This document shows positions 4,129-29,588 of a stretch of DNA of 32,000 nucleotides, in pieces; the first letter of the stretch is position 1, and every line of letters begins with the position of its first letter. The DNA is from Candidatus Velamenicoccus archaeovorus (GTDB lineage: Bacteria > Omnitrophota > Gorgyraeia > Velamenicoccales > Velamenicoccaceae). The stretch lies in NCBI RefSeq assembly GCF_004102945.1, contig NZ_CP019384.1, forward strand, positions 1,350,001 to 1,382,000, in the 5' to 3' direction. A model generated the notes under the pieces. That model saw nothing but the letters and a program-made list of their open reading frames with translations, was not told the origin of the DNA and made no database searches. A program made the position numbers and the translations under genes.

Positions 4129-6036
4129 ATGATTTACGACCGCTTCCAACAAGAAGCCATCGATTTTATCAATCAAGGTTGCTCTGTCGTCGTCTCGGCG
4201 CCGACGGGCGCAGGAAAAACAGCTATTGCCGAGCATGTCATCACCGCCTCCATCGCCCAACAGAAAGGCGTCATCTACACGGCGCCCATCAAGGCCCTCT
4301 CCAACCAGAAATTCAGGGACTTTCGCCGGCTCTATGGAAGTGCCATCGGCATCGTGACCGGCGACATCTCCATCAATCCGCACGCGCCCGTCCTCATCAT
4401 GACGACGGAGATATTCCGCAACAGGATCCTCGACGACCCCGGATCGCTCAAACAATACTCCTGGGTCATTTACGACGAGATCCATTATATCGACAACCCC
4501 GAACGCGGCACCGTCTGGGAAGAATCCTTGATCCTCCTGCCGGAACACATGAATTTTCTCGGACTTTCCGCGACGATCCCCAATATCGACGCGTTTGCCT
4601 CCTGGCTCAAAACCATCCATCACAAAGACGTCAGGGTCGTCATCGAAAACAACCGGCCTGTCCCTCTTCATATCTTCTTCCAGTGCCACGACCGCGTCAC
4701 GGACAAAATTGACGCCTCTGCCTATCATCCCGGCAGACCCAACCGGCTCGACACCCTGATCGAACGCCTGGAATCCCAGGGAGGACTGCCGGCCATCTAT
4801 TTTGCCTTCAGCAGGAGAAAAACGGAAGAGTTGGCGTATGAATCGCGCGGCCACCGCTTTCTGGCGCCCGGGGAAGAAATGCGGATCTCAGAACTCTTTG
4901 ACTCCCTCTGCCGGAAATACGGTCTCCAGGATAATGCATCCGCCAAAGATATCTTCCCTCTCGTGCGGCGCGGCATCGCCTTCCATCACGCCGGGATGCT
5001 GCCGACGCTCAAGGAAATCATCGAACAGCTTTTCACCAGCCACCTTTTGAAACTCATCTTCACCACAGAGACGTTCGCCCTCGGCATCAACATGCCGAGC
5101 CGTTCGGTGATCTTCGACGATTTAAGAAAAATCTACGGCCGCTATGCCCGCAACCTCAAAACCAGGGATTTCTACCAGATGGCCGGCCGCGCCGGCCGGC
5201 GCGGCATGGATAAAGAGGGTTTCGTCTACTGCCGCGTCCATCCTGCCAAGATCAGGCCTGAAGAGGTCCGGCGCATCGTCTTCGGACGGCCGGAGGAAGT
5301 CAAAAGCCAGTTCAATACCTCCTACGCGACGCTCCTGAATCTTTTCGGGCAGCTCAAAGACAGGCTCCTGGACATCTACCCGCTCTCGTTCCACTTCTAT
5401 GGCTCGCGCAAGAATGAACAAAAAGAAGCCGCGCGGCTCCTGGCGGCAAAAATGAGCCTGCTCAAGGAGCTCGGCTTCATCAAAGACAGCGCCCTGACGG
5501 ACAAAGGGGATTTCGCCAAGGCGATCTACGGCTACGAGTTGATCATTTCCGAGCTCTACGACAAACGTATCCTGCAGTCTCTGGACGTCGCAAGCCTGGG
5601 GATGCTTGCGGCCGCGGCCGTCTTCGAGCCGAGAAAATACCAGCAACCTCCCGCCCGCCTGCCCCAAGGATGCCGTCAGATCAAACAGGCAAGCGACAAA
5701 CTCTACGAAGCCCTGCGGGCCAAAGAACAAAGATGCAGGATTTATCCCGTCTCAAAAAAACTCTGGTGGCACCTTTCGCCGGCGATGGAAGCATGGATGA
5801 AAGGCGAAGACTTCGGACGGGTGGCGACGCTGACGGATACGGACGAAGGAGAGATTGTCAGGTATTTCCGCATGGCCCTGCAGATCTTGAACGAGATGCG
5901 CGAGATCAAAAACCTGCCGACAGAGATGAAAGAAAAGATCGAAAAGGCCATCCGTCTCATCAACCGCAACGAAGTGGACGCGGAAAAACAAATAAATCTC
6001 CCCGTGCTCGCCCCGCCCGAGACAGGGCAGACCTGA
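4129..6036 (+). CDS. SF2 DEAD/DEAH-box helicase, Ski2/HelY-like with DSHCT-type C-terminus
   Basis: Walker A APTGAGKT, DEIH box, SAT (LSAT), motif VI QMAGRAGRRG. C-terminal DEGEIVRYFRMALQILNEM resembles the DSHCT domain. Confidence 0.9.
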   Translation: MIYDRFQQEAIDFINQGCSVVVSAPTGAGKTAIAEHVITASIAQQKGVIYTAPIKALSNQKFRDFRRLYGSAIGIVTGDISINPHAPVLIMTTEIFRNRILDDPGSLKQYSWVIYDEIHYIDNPERGTVWEESLILLPEHMNFLGLSATIPNIDAFASWLKTIHHKDVRVVIENNRPVPLHIFFQCHDRVTDKIDASAYHPGRPNRLDTLIERLESQGGLPAIYFAFSRRKTEELAYESRGHRFLAPGEEMRISELFDSLCRKYGLQDNASAKDIFPLVRRGIAFHHAGMLPTLKEIIEQLFTSHLLKLIFTTETFALGINMPSRSVIFDDLRKIYGRYARNLKTRDFYQMAGRAGRRGMDKEGFVYCRVHPAKIRPEEVRRIVFGRPEEVKSQFNTSYATLLNLFGQLKDRLLDIYPLSFHFYGSRKNEQKEAARLLAAKMSLLKELGFIKDSALTDKGDFAKAIYGYELIISELYDKRILQSLDVASLGMLAAAAVFEPRKYQQPPARLPQGCRQIKQASDKLYEALRAKEQRCRIYPVSKKLWWHLSPAMEAWMKGEDFGRVATLTDTDEGEIVRYFRMALQILNEMREIKNLPTEMKEKIEKAIRLINRNEVDAEKQINLPVLAPPETGQT

Positions 6037-6125
6037 GGTTTCTTTCCTGGATGACCCCGCATTCTGCGGCTCGATTACGGGAAGGATAAACGGCACAGTC
6101 AAAGTCTGGATCCGGCCATGAAGCC

Positions 6126-13066: not shown

Positions 13067-13873
13067 TCAGGCCTTAACGGTACAAACGTCTGCCGCCCCG
13101 GCCGCAATCTTATCCTTAATGAGCCCGGCAACCTTCCTTCCTGAATACAGCATCCCGGAGAACGTCGGTCCCATACGGGGAATGGCAAAAACTGTGGCCA
13201 CGCTCATACCGCAGACATAAAGACCCGGATAGACCTCTCCTGTCTTTTCCACGAGCGCATCTTCGGAAGCGACGATATCCATGGCCCCGCACTCGCCGTA
13301 GGACAGAATCCCTCTCTTCTGCAAAGCCTGACAGACACGCGCATCGTGCCCGGTCGCATCTACGACAACCCTCGCCTCCAAGGCGACAGGATCGACACAG
13401 GTGATCGCCCGCGGCAGGGCCGATACGGCCGCCCAGTTGACGACCACGCCCTCCACGCGTCCCTGACGACAAACCACATCGTCGCACTTCGTCATTTGGA
13501 GGAATTTCACCCCTGCGTCGCATGCCGCGGCAATCAGCTTGGAACACGCCTCAGGACCTTTGGCCGCATACAACCCCTCTTCGATTTTTTTGTATCCGAC
13601 ACCTAACTCATCCAGCATCTCTTCTCCGGGACTGCGGAATGTCAGGGTATTCATAAAATACCCGCCGATCCAGAAACCGCCGCCGAGATAATTGTTGCTC
13701 TCGACCACCAGGGTCTTCAAGCCGCTCCGCGCCAGGTCCCGCGCCGCCACAAGACCGCTGGGGCCGGCTCCGACGATCACAACATCGCTTTCGATATGTC
13801 CGTCGAATTCCTGCAGGAATTCCGACGATATGGCACGCGTGATACGCGCTTCATTCACAGGATAAAATGTCAT
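13067..13873 (-). CDS. thi4: Thiazole synthase Thi4/THI1 family, Cys-type active site (ITCVDP)
   Basis: 268 aa. VVIVGAGPSG, NYLGGG, VNWAAV, DATGHDA, GMSV...RMGPTFSGMLYSG. Cys159 codon TGT at 13399..13397. AAGGAG SD upstream. Confidence 0.9.
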   Translation of the reverse strand: MTFYPVNEARITRAISSEFLQEFDGHIESDVVIVGAGPSGLVAARDLARSGLKTLVVESNNYLGGGFWIGGYFMNTLTFRSPGEEMLDELGVGYKKIEEGLYAAKGPEACSKLIAAACDAGVKFLQMTKCDDVVCRQGRVEGVVVNWAAVSALPRAITCVDPVALEARVVVDATGHDARVCQALQKRGILSYGECGAMDIVASEDALVEKTGEVYPGLYVCGMSVATVFAIPRMGPTFSGMLYSGRKVAGLIKDKIAAGAADVCTVKA

Positions 13874-13913
13874 ACGAGTCTCCTTAATTTTGCCTATAAC
13901 CAGGCCCTTTCCT

Positions 13914-14017
13914 TAGGCCCTCCCCTTAGGGGTATGGGGAAGGCCTACCCCTTGTGGGTTACAAAATTAGGCCCTTCGCTTATTTGGTATTGCGAAGGCC
14001 TACCCCCTTGTAGGGTT
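13914..14017 (-). repeat. Two tandem ~50-nt hairpin units (TAGGCC...GGCCTA stem plus small ACCC/GGGT hairpin) in the thi4 leader
   Basis: Unit at 13914..13960 has stem 13914..13925 / 13936..13947. Unit at 13968..14017 has stem 13968..13979 / 13992..14002. The outer 6 bp are identical. The inner 5 bp differ by two compensatory pair changes. A degenerate third unit lies at 14041..14080. Confidence 0.6.
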
Positions 14018-14088
14018 AATCCCGAGTCTGCGAAGGAAATTTTTGCCGGATGGCCGTCCGACGGCCTACCCTGGCAAAAATTTTCAAG

Positions 14089-14140
14089 CGCCCGCCACCA
14101 CTGCGTCGGCGGGCGTCCGCCGAAGAACTAGTGGCGGACG
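14089..14140 (-). repeat. Two abutting GC-rich 8-bp-stem hairpins; member of a dispersed palindromic repeat (second copy 24008..24048)
   Basis: CGCCCGCC-N11-GGCGGGCG (14089..14115) and CGTCCGCC-N11-GGCGGACG (14114..14140). The same stem, a similar loop and the flank CCCGCCAC(C/T)ACTGCGTC recur at 24008..24048. Confidence 0.55.
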
Positions 14141-14200
14141 TTGAGACGAGGGATAAGCGCCTATTCCTTAAGTTGTCCTTCTCATCATCGAACACTCTTC

Positions 14201-14235
14201 ACAAACAAAAAACCCTGCTGCCAAGCGCAACAGGG
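14201..14235 (-). terminator. Intrinsic terminator, probable expression platform of the TPP riboswitch
   Basis: Minus-strand CCCTGTTGC-GCTTG-GCAGCAGGG (9 bp including one G-U), followed by TTTTTTGTTTGT. Confidence 0.75.
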
Positions 14236-14261
14236 TCCTCAAAAGACATGGTCCATGTCTA

Positions 14262-14452
14262 CCTCCCTTCGCTGGCATTACCCAGTCCTGCTTCGCTAAA
14301 ACACTTTCGTTTTAGCTTCGCAGGATTCCTGCGTGGCCCCTTTAGAAGCGGGGCGCAACAGGAATCAGGTTCATGAGGTCATCCGCTGCGCCGTCGAAGC
14401 ACGCTTCGACAGCCTGCGGAACTCTCAGGCCGATACACGACCTCCCTCGTCC
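14262..14452 (-). promoter_or_regulatory. TPP (THI-box) riboswitch aptamer with two large insertions
   Basis: Minus-strand reading contains CUGAGAG (14428..14422), ACCUGAU (14370..14364) and CUGGGUAAUGCCAGCGAAGGGA (14285..14264). P2 is GAGGUC/GACCUC (14444..14439 and 14380..14375). It lies upstream of thi4 and is followed by a terminator. Confidence 0.75.
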
Positions 14453-14465
14453 GAATTGTGTCTTT

Positions 14466-14494
14466 ACCTTATCAAAGGACGACGCCTTTGTCAA
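14466..14494 (-). promoter_or_regulatory. Sigma70-type promoter TTGACA-N17-TAAGGT driving the riboswitch-thi4 transcript
   Basis: -35 at 14494..14489 and -10 at 14471..14466 (minus-strand reading). Predicted +1 near 14459, just 5' of the aptamer. Confidence 0.5.
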
Positions 14495-14518: not shown

Positions 14519-15382
14519 TCATTTATGTTCGCGCGCTACGCGCTGGGTCAATGGGTTCAAAGGATCGAGCCGCTGGGCATCCGCCAGATATTTTTTGGCC
14601 AGGTCTTCCTCGTTACGGCGGAAATAGATCTGCGCCAGGCGCGCATAGGCATCGGCGAAACGCGGATCGACCTCGATCGTCTCTTTGAGGAGCGCCAGCC
14701 CCTTCTCGGCGTCGCCGCCGGCAATGCCGGGCGCCAGCGCATAAAAGCTCCCCAATCCGAAGAGGACGCCGGCGGAATGGGGCGTAAGCTCCTGCGCCTT
14801 CTTGAGATACCCCAATATCTGCGTGCCCTGGAAAAGCTTGGAGAAGATCCCTCCTTCGTCGGCCAGCATCGCCTTGGCGCCTCCGATCGTCAGGTAGGCC
14901 CGCGCATAATTCGTCAGGTCTACTTTCTGTCGCCCCTGTCTGATGACCTTCGAGGCCAAAGAAATCGAGCGGCCATATTCCCGCTTGTCGAAAATCATAT
15001 AGGCCAGCGTGATGTAGGCCGGAGAAAATTCAGGATCCTTTTGGATGATCTCTTCAAGGATCTTTTCGGCCTTATCCACCTCATGGCGCCGGCGCAACAC
15101 CTCGGCCTGTCCCCAGCGGGCCTCGATACTCTGGGGATCGGCCTGAAGCATCCGCTTAAAGACGCTTTCGGCCTCATCGACCTTGTATTCATTCAGAAGA
15201 ACGATACCCAAAAGATACAGGGCCTCCTGGGATTGCGGATTCTTCTGTTGATAAGCGACGGCTTCGGGGAGAGAAGTCTTGTCGGCCTTTTCATGAATAT
15301 CCTTCCAGTCCGTCGCCGCGGCAGATCCGCATAGCGATATAAAAACAGCCGCAGACACAACCGATAGGATACGCTTCGTCAT
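14519..15382 (-). CDS. Secreted tetratricopeptide-repeat (TPR) protein
   Basis: 287 aa. Signal peptide MTKRILSVVSAAVFISLCGSAAA, then repeated 34-aa A/Y/L-patterned TPR units (e.g. ALYLLGIVLLNEYKVDEAESVFKRML, YARLAQIYFRRNEEDLAKKYL). Confidence 0.85.
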   Translation of the reverse strand: MTKRILSVVSAAVFISLCGSAAATDWKDIHEKADKTSLPEAVAYQQKNPQSQEALYLLGIVLLNEYKVDEAESVFKRMLQADPQSIEARWGQAEVLRRRHEVDKAEKILEEIIQKDPEFSPAYITLAYMIFDKREYGRSISLASKVIRQGRQKVDLTNYARAYLTIGGAKAMLADEGGIFSKLFQGTQILGYLKKAQELTPHSAGVLFGLGSFYALAPGIAGGDAEKGLALLKETIEVDPRFADAYARLAQIYFRRNEEDLAKKYLADAQRLDPLNPLTQRVAREHK

Positions 15383-15396
15383 TCCATCCTCTCTTT

Positions 15397-15537
15397 GTGG
15401 AATCCTCCGGGCCTGCCTTAGCCAAGGCGAGCCGGACTCTCCCTTCTTGTTTCAAACAGTCTCCTGAATGATCCTCACAGCGCCTTCCCGGGGGTTCCCT
15501 CCCGAGACAGTGCTGCATTTCCTGCCGAGGGATTGAA
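15397..15537 (-). promoter_or_regulatory. Unassigned conserved bipartite 5'-leader element, copy 1 (141 nt)
   Basis: Blocks 15537..15494 and 15417..15397 match 28661..28619 (37/44) and 28597..28577 (21/21). Extended -10 TGTTACAAT (15549..15541) ends 3 nt upstream. The element ends 14 nt before ATG 15382. Confidence 0.5.
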
Positions 15538-15690
15538 CCCATTGTAACAAATACCAGGCGATGGACAATAGATAAATCGTCGCATGCCTCACACGTCTTC
15601 CTTCGGACATGTGTTGTTTCCAGCACTGTGAGATGATATGATAGGTTTATTGTTCATGCGACCTGCAACAAGGCATATGGAGAGCCAGCT

Positions 15691-16539
15691 ATGGCCATAA
15701 AGATCAATCTTGCCAAATCAGCCGGCTTCTGTTTCGGCGTACGCCGGGCCATCACCATCGCCCTCAAGACCACGGCAAAACACAAGGACGTGCGGATGCT
15801 CGGCGATATCGTCCATAACGAAGACGTCATCGCCATGATGGAGAGAACCGGAGTAAAAAAGATCAGGACGCTGCGCAAAAACCGCGGACAGACGCTCGTG
15901 ATCCGCGCCCACGGGCTGTCGGCATCCGTCTTTAAGCGCGCTCAAAAACTCGGCTACATCGTCGTGGATGCGACATGCCCCATGGTCAAGGAGATTCACA
16001 GGATTGCGCGCAGGATGGAGCAGGAAAAGCGCAGGATCATCATCATTGGAGATAAAAAACATGACGAAGTCCGCGGCATCAAGGGCCAGCTCAAGACAAA
16101 GGCCTTTGTCGTCTCTTCTGTCGGGGCCGCGGCCCGCCTGCCTTTTCCAAAGATCAAAAAAGCCGCGGTGGTCATTCAATCCACGCAAGACGAAGAAAAC
16201 GCGCTCGGCATATTGCAGCTGATCGCCTCGAAAGTGCGGGATTTGAAATTCTTCAACACCATCTGCGCGCCGACCAGGGTCAAACAAGCAGAAATCAAGG
16301 CCATCCCCTTGAAGAACGATGTCGCGATCATCATTGGTTCCGGCGCGAGCGCCAACACGCGGCGTCTTTTTGAGATCGCCAGGAAACTCAACCCGCGCAC
16401 CTATTGGGTCAGGTCCGCCGGAGACATCCGTCCCCGCTGGCTGAAAGGTATTTCATCCATCGGGATCACGACAGGGGCATCGACACCGGACTCAACGACT
16501 CAACAAGTGATCACGCGCCTCCGCGCCCTCTCTGCCTGA
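15691..16539 (+). CDS. ispH: 4-hydroxy-3-methylbut-2-enyl diphosphate reductase
   Basis: 282 aa. AGFCFGVRRAI, DIVHNEDV, DATCPMV, NTICAPT, ASANTRRL (three cluster Cys). GGAGA SD. Possible promoter TTGTTT-N17-TATGAT at 15614..15642. Confidence 0.95.
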   Translation: MAIKINLAKSAGFCFGVRRAITIALKTTAKHKDVRMLGDIVHNEDVIAMMERTGVKKIRTLRKNRGQTLVIRAHGLSASVFKRAQKLGYIVVDATCPMVKEIHRIARRMEQEKRRIIIIGDKKHDEVRGIKGQLKTKAFVVSSVGAAARLPFPKIKKAAVVIQSTQDEENALGILQLIASKVRDLKFFNTICAPTRVKQAEIKAIPLKNDVAIIIGSGASANTRRLFEIARKLNPRTYWVRSAGDIRPRWLKGISSIGITTGASTPDSTTQQVITRLRALSA

Positions 16540-16562
16540 ACTAGGCCCTTGCGGTCTTCTTC

Positions 16563-17837
16563 TCAAAAATTCTGCTTGTACTTCAAAAAGACGGCGTCGT
16601 TAGTTTCTGGCAGCTGCGTCGTATTCGTGACACTCTCCTGGGAACGCATCTCCTTTTCACCCTCAACGGACAGATGATCGGCCACCTTATAGACCAATGC
16701 CGCCTTTTGGGTCATGGAAACATTGCCGCTGCTGCCGTCTTCCTGTGAAACGGTATAATTCAACCTGGCTCGCGTCGTTATTTGCGTCCCCAGGCCGACC
16801 CCTTTCTTGTTCTGGTCGATCTCCAGATGGATATCGCTTACCCCCAAGGCATGGGCCAAATCAGTCACCTTCCCGCCGAAAAACAAGAAATCCAGCGTAT
16901 CTTTGATCAAATCTGCAGACACCCCTCCCTCGGACAAAGACTTCTCGGCGCTTTGCCAGCTTTTGCCTGTCAAAAGCATCACCAGAAGCCGCTCCTGGGG
17001 CATGGAAGGATCTGAATCAAACCTGAGCTTCGGTTCTTTGAGGGTCCCCTGAAGACGAATCGAGATGGAAACATTTTCCACCTGCGAAAAACCTCTAAGA
17101 TCCAACCGCACATCCCGCGGGCCGTCGGCCAGGATGATGCGGCCGGGTTTCAGGACAATAGCGGCATGAGGCAGCTCGAGTTGCCCGCCATAAATACCGA
17201 CAGAAGCCCAAGATCCGTTCGATTTCGCATATTCCCACAGAAATCCCAAAGGACAATTCTGAAGGACAAAACGGCTCCCCTGGATTTCCGCCACATGGGC
17301 TTTTCCTTCGACGGCGAACCGTTGCGCTGAAACCTTCAGGCGGCATTCCAGGCGGTCCACAAGACCCCGCAGATCCGCCAGCTCCTTGACGGCGGGCGCA
17401 AAACGGCGCACATCTCCCAGATGGATGTCCTTACCAAAAACATCCCCCTCAAAAACGCCATCCTGCAACGCGCCATCGAGGACGACATTCCCGGAATCAG
17501 GAAGGATCAGGCGGCCGTTATGGATCTCGACATTGAGCCCTTTCGGAAACGGAACGCTGAAAAACACATCGATCTTGGAAATCCTCACGATGAGATCCTG
17601 CGGCAGGCGCCCTTTGAAACGGCTGATTTCCAGATCTTTGATCACCAGGTGTCTGCCGAGCGAACCGTCGATTCCGGCGATCTTATAGTCGGCGGCGCCC
17701 ATGATGTCCCGGACGACTCTCCGGACAACAAAAGAAGCGCCCCAGCGCGTCAACAAGAGCCACCAAAGGCATACAACAGAAAAAACGACAAGCACGGATG
17801 TAAAAATCCCCAATATCGTAAATATTTTCTTTCTCAT
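16563..17837 (-). CDS. Short TamB/DUF490-like translocation-and-assembly-module protein
   Basis: ORF 16563..17906. Start moved to ATG 17837 (MRKKIFTILGIFTSVLVVFSVV anchor, GGAG 5 nt upstream). The C-terminal ~150 aa resemble the TamB DUF490 end (LLTGKSW...GVSDIHLEID...LNYTVSQ...VYKVADHLSVEGE). Confidence 0.75.
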   Translation of the reverse strand: MRKKIFTILGIFTSVLVVFSVVCLWWLLLTRWGASFVVRRVVRDIMGAADYKIAGIDGSLGRHLVIKDLEISRFKGRLPQDLIVRISKIDVFFSVPFPKGLNVEIHNGRLILPDSGNVVLDGALQDGVFEGDVFGKDIHLGDVRRFAPAVKELADLRGLVDRLECRLKVSAQRFAVEGKAHVAEIQGSRFVLQNCPLGFLWEYAKSNGSWASVGIYGGQLELPHAAIVLKPGRIILADGPRDVRLDLRGFSQVENVSISIRLQGTLKEPKLRFDSDPSMPQERLLVMLLTGKSWQSAEKSLSEGGVSADLIKDTLDFLFFGGKVTDLAHALGVSDIHLEIDQNKKGVGLGTQITTRARLNYTVSQEDGSSGNVSMTQKAALVYKVADHLSVEGEKEMRSQESVTNTTQLPETNDAVFLKYKQNF

Positions 17838-24462: not shown

Positions 24463-24664
24463 TATCTACTACCCTCCTTTCTTACAAATTTTTTCCTGGA
24501 TCATTACGGCTCATAGATAGTAAATAACGGCAGGGAACACGGTCGTGCAAAACTGCTTTCCAACACCTTCCACTCCTTTATTTACTACTAAACCCCGTTA
24601 AAGAACTTTGTTCTCTGGCGGTCTCTTGCCGACGGCGGCTTTCTCTAACGGGGTAAACAGAAAA

Positions 24665-28576: not shown

Positions 28577-28661
28577 GTGGAATCCTCCGGGCCTGCCATG
28601 AACAGGACGAATCCAGAGGTTCTCTCCCAAGACAGCACGCATTCCCTGCCGAGGGATTGAA
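28577..28661 (-). promoter_or_regulatory. Unassigned conserved bipartite 5'-leader element, copy 2 (85 nt)
   Basis: Same two blocks as 15397..15537, with only 21 nt between them. Extended -10 TGGTAAAGT (28673..28665) ends 3 nt upstream. The element ends 34 nt before ATG 28542. Confidence 0.5.
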
Positions 28662-28714
28662 GATACTTTACCAAAAGCCGTCCTGCCGTACAACCAAATT
28701 TTTCCGGCCCCTTC

Positions 28715-28742: not shown

Positions 28743-28817
28743 GCAAACATGCGCCGCGGGCTTTCTGGAGACCTGGCGCCCCATGACATCATCATCCGTC
28801 TGAAGAAAGGAAAAAGC

Positions 28818-29588
28818 ATGATCGACGAAATCAAGATTTCCAGGGCCATCATCGACACTTACAGCAAAAAACTGATCGACCACCTTTCCGTAGATGTGGC
28901 GATTGCCGGCGCCGGCCCCTCCGGCATGGTCTGCGCTTACTATCTCGCCAAAAAAGGCAAAAAAGTCGCCATCTTCGAACGTAAGCTATCCGTCGGTGGA
29001 GGCATGTGGGGCGGCGGCATCATGTTCAACGAGATCGTCGTCCAGGCACAGGCCAAAAAGATCCTCGATGAATTCGGCATCCGCAGCCGCCTCTGGGAGA
29101 ACGGCTACTATCTGGCGGATTCCATCGAAGCCACGGCGACGCTGTGCGCGCAGGCCCTCAAAGCCGGCGCGGCCATCTTCAATTGCATGAGCGCCGAAGA
29201 TGTCATGATCAGGAAAAACCGCGTCTGCGGACTTGTCCTCAACTGGACGGCCGTCGAAATGGCGCGGCTCCACGTAGACCCCATCACGATGCGCGCCTCC
29301 TATGTCGTCGACGGCACAGGCCACGACGCGCAAATCGTCCATATCGTCGAAAATAAATCCGGGATACGCCTCAAGACAAAAACCGGAAGGGCCGCCGGCG
29401 AAGGCTCCATGTGGGCCGAGATCGCCGAGGCGACAACCGTCAAAAATACCGGCGAAGTGGCTCCGGGCCTCTATGTCTGCGGCATGTGCGCCAACGCCGC
29501 TTTCGGCGGACCCCGCATGGGCCCCATCTTCGGAGGCATGCTTCTGTCGGGAAAAAAAGCTGCAGAAGAACTCCTCAAGAAACTCTAG
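28818..29588 (+). CDS. thi4: Thiazole synthase Thi4 family, His-type active site (LHVDP; sulfide-dependent archaeal type)
   Basis: ORF 28749..29588. Start moved to ATG 28818 ([21 protein letters not shown]). [33 protein letters not shown]...[13 protein letters not shown]. His152 codon CAC at 29271..29273. Confidence 0.9.

Follow-up and report, generated by a model that had tools for sequence, protein, structure and literature searches.

The 32-kb stretch of Candidatus Velamenicoccus archaeovorus DNA analysed here (the window) carries, on its minus strand, two copies of a non-coding element in the leaders of two genes. They lie at 15537..15397 and 28661..28577, where the initial annotation had put them, the first in front of a TPR-protein gene (ATG 15382), the second in front of the NodB-GT39-PIG-L operon (ATG 28542); the gene assignments are backed by the Pfam families TPR, Polysacc_deac_1, PMT/PMT_2 and PIG-L. 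The features of the two leaders, with the basis on which each was placed, are as follows.

15541..15568, minus strand: native promoter of the TPR gene, TTGTCC-16-TG-n-TACAAT, its -10 hexamer ending at 15541 (promoter scan; conserved in the related loci L009, L011 and L013)
15534..15537, minus strand: TTCA directly 5' of copy 1, native, a candidate target motif whose A is the predicted transcription start (also seen in L009 and L011, whose sites are empty, and again ahead of copy 2)
15495..15537, minus strand: imperfect hairpin of the 5' module (LE) of copy 1, UUC/GAA, UCCC/GGGA and GGCAG/CUGUC (pair counts)
15397..15533, minus strand: inserted segment of copy 1, the long form, 137 nt with an uncertainty of 1 nt in its boundary, in the leader of the TPR gene (comparison of filled and empty sites)
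15432..15487, minus strand: 56-nt internal segment, in copy 1 only, between CCGG direct repeats (MAFFT alignment of both copies and L001)
15397..15417, minus strand: 3' block (RE) of copy 1, GGCAGGCCCGGAGGATTCCAC (exact match)
15380..15393, minus strand: native Shine-Dalgarno sequence (GAGAGGA) and ATG of the TPR gene (sequence)
28665..28673, minus strand: putative extended -10 TGGTAAAGT of the NodB operon (read from the sequence; conserved in L001, L080 and L003)
28658..28661, minus strand: TTCA directly 5' of copy 2, with TTCG at the same place in L003 (sequence comparison)
28619..28661, minus strand: hairpin of the 5' module (LE) of copy 2 (part of the minimum-free-energy fold; pair counts)
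28577..28657, minus strand: inserted segment of copy 2, short form, 81 nt, in the NodB-GT39-PIG-L leader (presence and absence in relatives)
28577..28597, minus strand: 3' block (RE) of copy 2 (exact match)

The 21-nt 3' block GGCAGGCCCGGAGGATTCCAC is indeed identical at 21/21 positions, with exact sites at 15417..15397 and 28597..28577; beyond these the window holds no match at up to three mismatches, and none of 100 shuffles gave any (0/100). The 44-nt 5' blocks are similar as annotated, although their identity is about 38/44 instead of the claimed 37/44 (five substitutions and one gap in the MAFFT alignment), and their first 17 nt, the 17-mer TTCAATCCCTCGGCAGG, are restricted in the window to the two copies. 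The spacers between the blocks measure 76 nt in copy 1 and 21 nt in copy 2, as had been reported. The complementarity proposed between AAUCC... at the 5' end and ...GGAUU at the 3' end likewise exists: AATCCCTCGG and CCGGAGGATT pair at 9/10 positions, one of them a G-U (G-T in the DNA), next to one C-A mismatch, and the right arm is set back by 4 nt from the end of the element. A third copy in the window was found by neither the repeat search nor nhmmer nor a covariance model with its filters off.

In front of copy 1, the promoter scan recovers the annotated TTGTCC-16-TACAAT with its upstream TG, ending 3 nt before TTCAATCC. As this promoter is conserved in L009, L011 and L013, all of which are without the element, it is native to the TPR gene. 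The extended -10 TGGTAAAGT annotated for copy 2 can be read in the sequence but remained sub-threshold in the promoter scan; since it is kept in relatives without the element, it is plausibly part of a native promoter as well. The predicted start is the final A of TTCA, 7 nt downstream of the -10. Thus, the earlier statement that the conserved sequence begins at about +1 is right as to the position, but this position is explained by the landing site of an insertion, and the start itself is only predicted.

What, then, is the origin of the repeat? It was followed through a graded series of syntenic Omnitrophota loci, gathered via the GT39 and TPR homologs, in which DNA identity to the window in nodB is 96.8% for L001, 91% for L080/L017, 85.7% for L003 and about 75% for L081 and L007, and TPR protein identity is 92% for L009/L010, 87% for L011/L012, 76% for L013/L014 and 77% for L015/L016. 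In the closest relative, L009/L010, the TPR leader reads ...TTGTCCATCGCCTGGCATTTGTTACAATGGGTTCAAAAGAGAGGGGCAGGGATG, with promoter and Shine-Dalgarno sequence as in the window. Its empty site is ...TGTTACAATGGGTTCAAAAGAGAGG..., that is, TTCA followed at once by AAAGAGAGG, where the window has TTCA[ATCCC...TTCCAC]AAAGAGAGG, with 137 nt extra exactly there. L009/L010 is the same genome as L001 and carries the NodB copy, its TPR site being empty. In L011/L012, L013/L014 and L015/L016 the promoter is retained, the TPR leader is short and the element is missing. The orthologous TPR leaders are thus without the copy in 4/4 cases, and conservation across them, as a conserved leader element would have it, is not borne out.

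Conservation across the NodB leaders fares little better, the copy being limited to the window and its two nearest lineages. It is full in the window and in L001/L002/L048/L066, and shortened in L017/L080, where the 5' hairpin is followed at once by GATTC and the remainder has been lost between GGGAG and CGGAG repeats. In L003/L004 the conserved promoter passes directly into the native leader, and the NodB leaders of L006-L008 and L081 are without the element too. Given these orthologous empty sites, the repeat is an insertion-derived cassette and not an ancestral leader, and in either case it was inserted into a short leader that already existed, downstream of the native -10 box and upstream of the native Shine-Dalgarno sequence. 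Each copy follows TTCA immediately and has the sense orientation (n=2). The empty 174-nt LytB-TPR intergenic region contains TTCA once on the sense strand and its complement TGAA once more; with this lone sense-strand motif, target specificity alone could explain a start at +1. No target-site duplication emerged from the comparison of filled and empty sites, at most one ambiguous A, and TTC was ruled out as such a duplication, because the CAC after it is found in both copies and is thus part of the element. That the nearest relative lacks a segment need not mean that the lack is ancestral: a 65-nt intergenic segment between the PIG-L and cold-shock genes (window 24594-24658) is common to the distant loci L015 and L081 and missing in L001, which has another 65-nt GC-rich hairpin near the equivalent position. 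The conclusion on the element therefore rests on several outgroups.

Parsimony places the NodB-leader copy as a single gain after the L003 split and before the window, L001 and L080 diverged, since when it has lost internal sequence via deletions between short repeats, and the TPR-leader copy as a separate, later gain of the long form in the window lineage only. The difference in spacer length had been read as a conserved core with a variable hairpin; it is instead a 56-nt indel flanked by direct repeats of CCGG. Relative to the L001-type sequence, copy 1 has just these 56 nt more, CCCCCGG[GAAGG...GAGTCCGG]CTCG, and without the segment CCCCCGG joins CTCG directly, as in L001 (MAFFT). At GGAAAT, GGGAGGG and CCCCCGG copy 1 has the ancestral state and copy 2 the derived one, so that copy 1 was not copied from the present copy 2 and a third source copy is implied. 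Mobility as such we infer from these two events, that is, from two insertion loci and four distinct sequences.

The surroundings of the two copies show further rearrangement. On the minus strand, the TPR gene is directly followed by the leader of thi4 (ATG 13873), which contains a TPP riboswitch (14203-14470) that Rfam missed in the window; the orthologous TPP sites score as RF00059 (L009 8088-8219, 59.5 bits; L013 10940-11075, 56.4 bits). In the window (14286-14363) and in L015, a two-hairpin insertion of about 78-80 nt interrupts the J4/5-P5 region of the aptamer, precisely at the junction of AACCUGAU and CUGGGUAAUGCCAGCG, with the sequence of the first inserted hairpin differing between the two. 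The riboswitch may have been disrupted in the window, or its aptamer may be a variant that is still functional and has an additional domain. Kinship of this insertion with the cassette was considered and rejected, as the two have only an 8-11 nt GGAATCC match in common. The insertion is patchy, being found in the window and L015 and not in L009 and L013, and thi4 itself differs at 31% of 4-fold sites (window 13067-13873 versus L009 8428-9234), compared with 8-15% in the neighbouring genes; together, these patterns suggest recombination with another lineage, in which the thi4 region was exchanged. Between a terminator-like hairpin, GCAGGGTTTTTTG (about 14215), and thi4, 315 nt of the window (13888-14202, minus strand) cannot be aligned with the 149 nt of L009 and contain repeated GGGTAGGCCTTC and AGGGCCTAA units along with GC-rich palindromes, for which there are weak matches only elsewhere. 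In L015 (10001-16211) the TPR ortholog heads a run of further TPR proteins, a cellulose-synthase-like GT2 and a GH8 glycosidase, a run without tblastn match in the window and in contrast to the thi4 leader that comes directly after the window TPR gene. Finally, the window has a pair of Thi4-family paralogs, the one downstream of the TPR gene (13067-13873, minus strand) and the other divergent from NodB (28749-29588, plus strand); that each adjoins an element-bearing unit is probably a coincidence.

Is the cassette under selection? Between the window and L001, nodB differs at 8.0% and PIG-L at 9.7% of 4-fold-degenerate sites, and the upstream intergenic region at 11.5%. Copy 2 differs from the L001 element by 12 substitutions and one indel over 85 nt, while the native leader downstream of it differs at 1/37 positions. 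By these counts, the element as a whole diverges roughly at the neutral rate and is not under sequence constraint. Nor does the perfect identity of the 3' block stem from deep constraint, as 3/21 positions have changed in L001, above the 8-10% 4-fold divergence; it points to a recent common origin. The identity in the window, set against three changes in L001, could reflect such a recent shared origin, gene conversion or constraint.

The 5' hairpin is another matter. Over the four distinct sequences, 97.9% of cells pair, and only one of the nine variable columns is a paired one, a G-U to G-C change (Fisher one-sided p=0.0045). The covariation that the initial annotation had put forward as a check is missing: among the four distinct sequences 10/12 pairs are invariant, one has gone from G-U to G-C and none (0) has changed on both sides. 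With no compensatory double changes, the stems are depleted of change rather than covarying. In the shortened copy of L017/L080, the 5' hairpin is intact despite 20% 4-fold divergence from the window. The loop differs in length by 1 nt between the copies, which favours a hairpin over an operator for a dimeric protein. From this pattern of substitutions we infer purifying selection on the stems of the 5' hairpin, even in the copy without a 3' end.

Neither known families nor further copies account for the element. As the annotation had anticipated, Rfam 15 gave nothing at gathering threshold over the whole window, and at E <=10 the two loci returned noise only (suhB, CRISPR-DR18, Hammerhead_1 and GHRLOS), far sub-threshold and in 3/4 cases on the wrong strand. 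The additional copies that were hoped for did not turn up, genome and metagenome scans yielding NodB-leader orthologs only. A degenerate pattern of the 5' end, AATCCCNCGGCAGGNAATGC, had 33 matches among the species genomes of GTDB and 30 among metagenome contigs of JGI, of which only the NodB-leader orthologs L017, L048 and L066 have the rest of the element; the species-representative genome of L048 has one pattern match. Six matches of the 3' block in viral contigs were all due to chance, blastn of copy 1 against plasmids and phages gave no match, and in some 150-200 kb of related loci no extra copy turned up, whether by fuzzy matching, nhmmer or a 5'-hairpin covariance model. In the sequences covered, the element family is rare and lineage-restricted. 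The window holds no transposase, and a full-length parent element was not found. L009 does have an insertion of about 860 nt (16189-17047, window equivalent 5992-6125) with a 221-aa Y1_Tnp protein (PF01797) flanked by CAGAGCTWAGCTCTG palindromes; missing from the window and L013, it indicates that HUH/Y1 elements are active in the clade. As the cognate enzyme of the cassette, this Y1 transposase was ruled out by its unrelated flanking palindromes.

What the inserted sequence would do to an mRNA was approached by folding. Fold stability is modest to weak (z = -0.6 to -2.5), and copy 1 in its minimum-free-energy fold has a competing helix where the 5' hairpin would be. Of the two end hairpins, which are dissimilar, the left one is clear and the right one a prediction, its register differing between the copies. 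In modelled mRNAs with the element, nucleotides 3-6 are nearly always paired in copy 2 and L001 and more weakly so in copy 1, whereas the 5' ends of modelled leaders without it are single-stranded. Occlusion of the ribosome-binding site was dismissed, because opening energies with and without the element shift by <=1.5 kcal/mol, as was a transcription attenuator, there being no terminator-like site within either copy. A leader peptide was also discarded: in copy 2 and L001 a 22-codon ORF starts at the AUG of the hairpin loop, but in copy 1 the frame overruns the TPR start, and the ORF lacks conservation; moreover, no Shine-Dalgarno sequence is suitably spaced, and most of the changes that separate copy 2 from L001 are non-synonymous. 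GGA is more frequent than expected in copy 1 (9 versus 3.9) and in copy 2 (5 versus 1.5).

Taken together, we favour, at somewhat better than even chances, the reading that the two copies represent an insertion cassette of 81-137 nt, new, non-coding and lineage-restricted, which occurs in an Omnitrophota clade and likely acts as a 5'-terminal mRNA stem-loop. What stands of the earlier reading is a non-chance repeat in two leaders with a hairpin-forming 5' block; what finds no support is the conserved, riboswitch-like structured leader. The cassette would have spread by a target-specific mechanism without duplication, either single-strand, HUH-type transposition or microhomology-mediated copying. 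As it lands at the predicted transcription start, the mRNA would open with its 5' hairpin, 1-2 unpaired nucleotides ahead. This hairpin, probably exapted, would then alter mRNA stability or provide a protein-binding site, and its conservation together with its 5'-terminal position suggests an effect of this kind, which is the most likely role.

The cassette could also be purely selfish or neutral, MITE- or PATE-like and without host function, the leaders being no more than tolerated landing sites that bear TTCA. The insertion polymorphism among relatives, the internal deletions in two lineages, a total divergence no lower than the neutral rate, including changes at 3/21 positions of the 3' block in L001, and the hardly altered predicted accessibility of the ribosome-binding site would all be in line with this, and the single sense TTCA of the empty LytB-TPR region would by itself place a sense insertion at +1. 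However, the stems of the 5' hairpin are conserved as the loops drift, even in L017/L080, whose copy without a 3' end should be immobile; the copy number is very low, unlike in typical MITE or REP families; and both copies lie in sense upstream of envelope or polysaccharide genes. We therefore consider a wholly selfish element rather unlikely, if a serious contender. The same conserved arms could be read as DNA, namely as an operator: a dimeric repressor would bind the imperfect palindrome TCCC-N2-GGCAG...CTGTC-N2-GGGA (+1 to +40), the copying of which would have put both units under one transcription factor. Overlap with the transcription start is the classic position of a repressor, the arms of the inverted repeat are conserved around a variable centre, and the G-U to G-C change in L001 raises half-site symmetry. 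Yet the half-site spacing in copy 1 differs by 1 bp from the others, the central sequence is different too, the bipartite element reaches 40-100 nt past the palindrome, and no adjacent regulator gene is specific to the lineages carrying the element, so that we regard an operator as improbable.

Least probable of all appears to us the new riboswitch class, in which the 5' sequence AAUCCCUCGG would pair either in the 5' hairpin or with the 3' sequence CCGGAGGAUU, an SD-like decoy, and so control envelope genes. The alternative pairings that it calls for can be drawn, of the 5' arm with the 3' block, of the 5' arm with the native Shine-Dalgarno sequence (as in the minimum-free-energy fold of copy 1) and within the 5' hairpin; no known family matches, hence the class would be new; and both downstream units belong to envelope or exopolysaccharide functions, the TPR gene of L015 even heading a cellulose-synthase-like operon. 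Against it, the element is missing from the orthologous leaders of close relatives and large scans yield no further copies, compensatory changes are absent, and evolution of the 3' block and spacer is no slower than neutral. Nor does it contain a terminator-like site, and the opening energy of the ribosome-binding site is nearly the same with or without it. In particular, a ligand-sensing aptamer is unlikely because L017/L080 do without the 3' half, the core can accommodate an indel of 56 nt and orthologous conservation is lacking.

How does the insertion cassette compare with known mobile repeats? Correia/NEMIS and ERIC-type MITEs are co-transcribed small repeats able to alter mRNA processing or stability (PMC3184786). 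Like these, the cassette is non-coding, within their range of 80-160 nt, has largely complementary ends that may fold into a long hairpin, lies between and beside genes, exists in long and short forms through internal indels and varies in presence between close strains. In contrast to theirs, which are flanked by TA duplications, its insertions are without target-site duplication; its right-end complementarity is subterminal by 4 nt, there is no sequence similarity, and it occurs in one or two copies per genome fragment instead of tens to hundreds. Assignment to the classical MITEs was rejected on the missing target duplication (PMC3184786). REP/BIME sequences were rejected too, being 20-40 nt GC-rich palindromes of high copy number that are typically found 3' of genes, whereas the cassette is composite, 81-137 nt long, low-copy and located in 5' leaders.

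Closer in its mode of insertion is the IS200/IS605 family, whose members insert 3' of a tetra- or pentanucleotide without duplication and give rise to end-only derivatives, the PATEs (PMC7290912, PMC10055086). The cassette shares with PATEs the position directly 3' of TTCA (2/2) without duplication, the strand-specific orientation, a clear left and a predicted right hairpin near its ends and the seamless empty sites in relatives. It differs in that no cognate TnpA/TnpB was found near its copies in the window and related loci, its left and right hairpins are unlike and guide/target pairing is not demonstrable; furthermore, it has about 10 bp of terminal complementarity, which that family normally lacks, and its 5' hairpin begins 2 nt from the junction, unlike in IS608. 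By analogy, its spread would resemble the IS200/IS605 'peel and paste' mode; the cassette is at most a candidate member of the family, given the missing cognate transposase, the unlike end hairpins and the complementary ends.

For the role of the 5' hairpin, a precedent is provided by the 5' stem-loops that stabilise bacterial mRNAs, and as in the stabiliser leaders of ompA, recA and vacA, the hairpin of the cassette lies a few nucleotides from the predicted 5' end and apart from the ribosome-binding site (PMC7509114). While those are native features of their leaders, the cassette is an insertion, with a putative stabilising role and a predicted start. A different precedent may come from leaders bound by CsrA, such as that of pgaABCD. 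The cassette is likewise enriched in GGA, which occurs in or beside hairpin loops and in the SD-like GGAGGAUU, and its downstream genes resemble a polysaccharide deacetylase/TPR system, although the GGA enrichment may just be that of a purine-rich, SD-like sequence. In a bolder variant, to which we give little credence, the cassette would be a mobile riboregulatory module: a structured 5' UTR able to transpose, with TTCA at transcription start sites as its target, and so to join envelope and exopolysaccharide operons in one post-transcriptional regulon. Each insertion would install the same 5' hairpin and GGA-rich or SD-like sites, and control might be exerted by a CsrA-like protein or along an RNase-dependent route. 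If true, a regulon would here grow through the transposition of a cis-acting RNA element.

More generally, similar paralogous leaders within one genome can mimic a new riboswitch, and here it is the empty sites that reveal an insertion. In the uncultivated phylum studied, a small, previously undescribed cassette has landed twice exactly at the predicted +1 of envelope-related units. It thereby offers a tractable example of a 5'-UTR structure that was gained in a single step and whose first hairpin has apparently come under selection after insertion.
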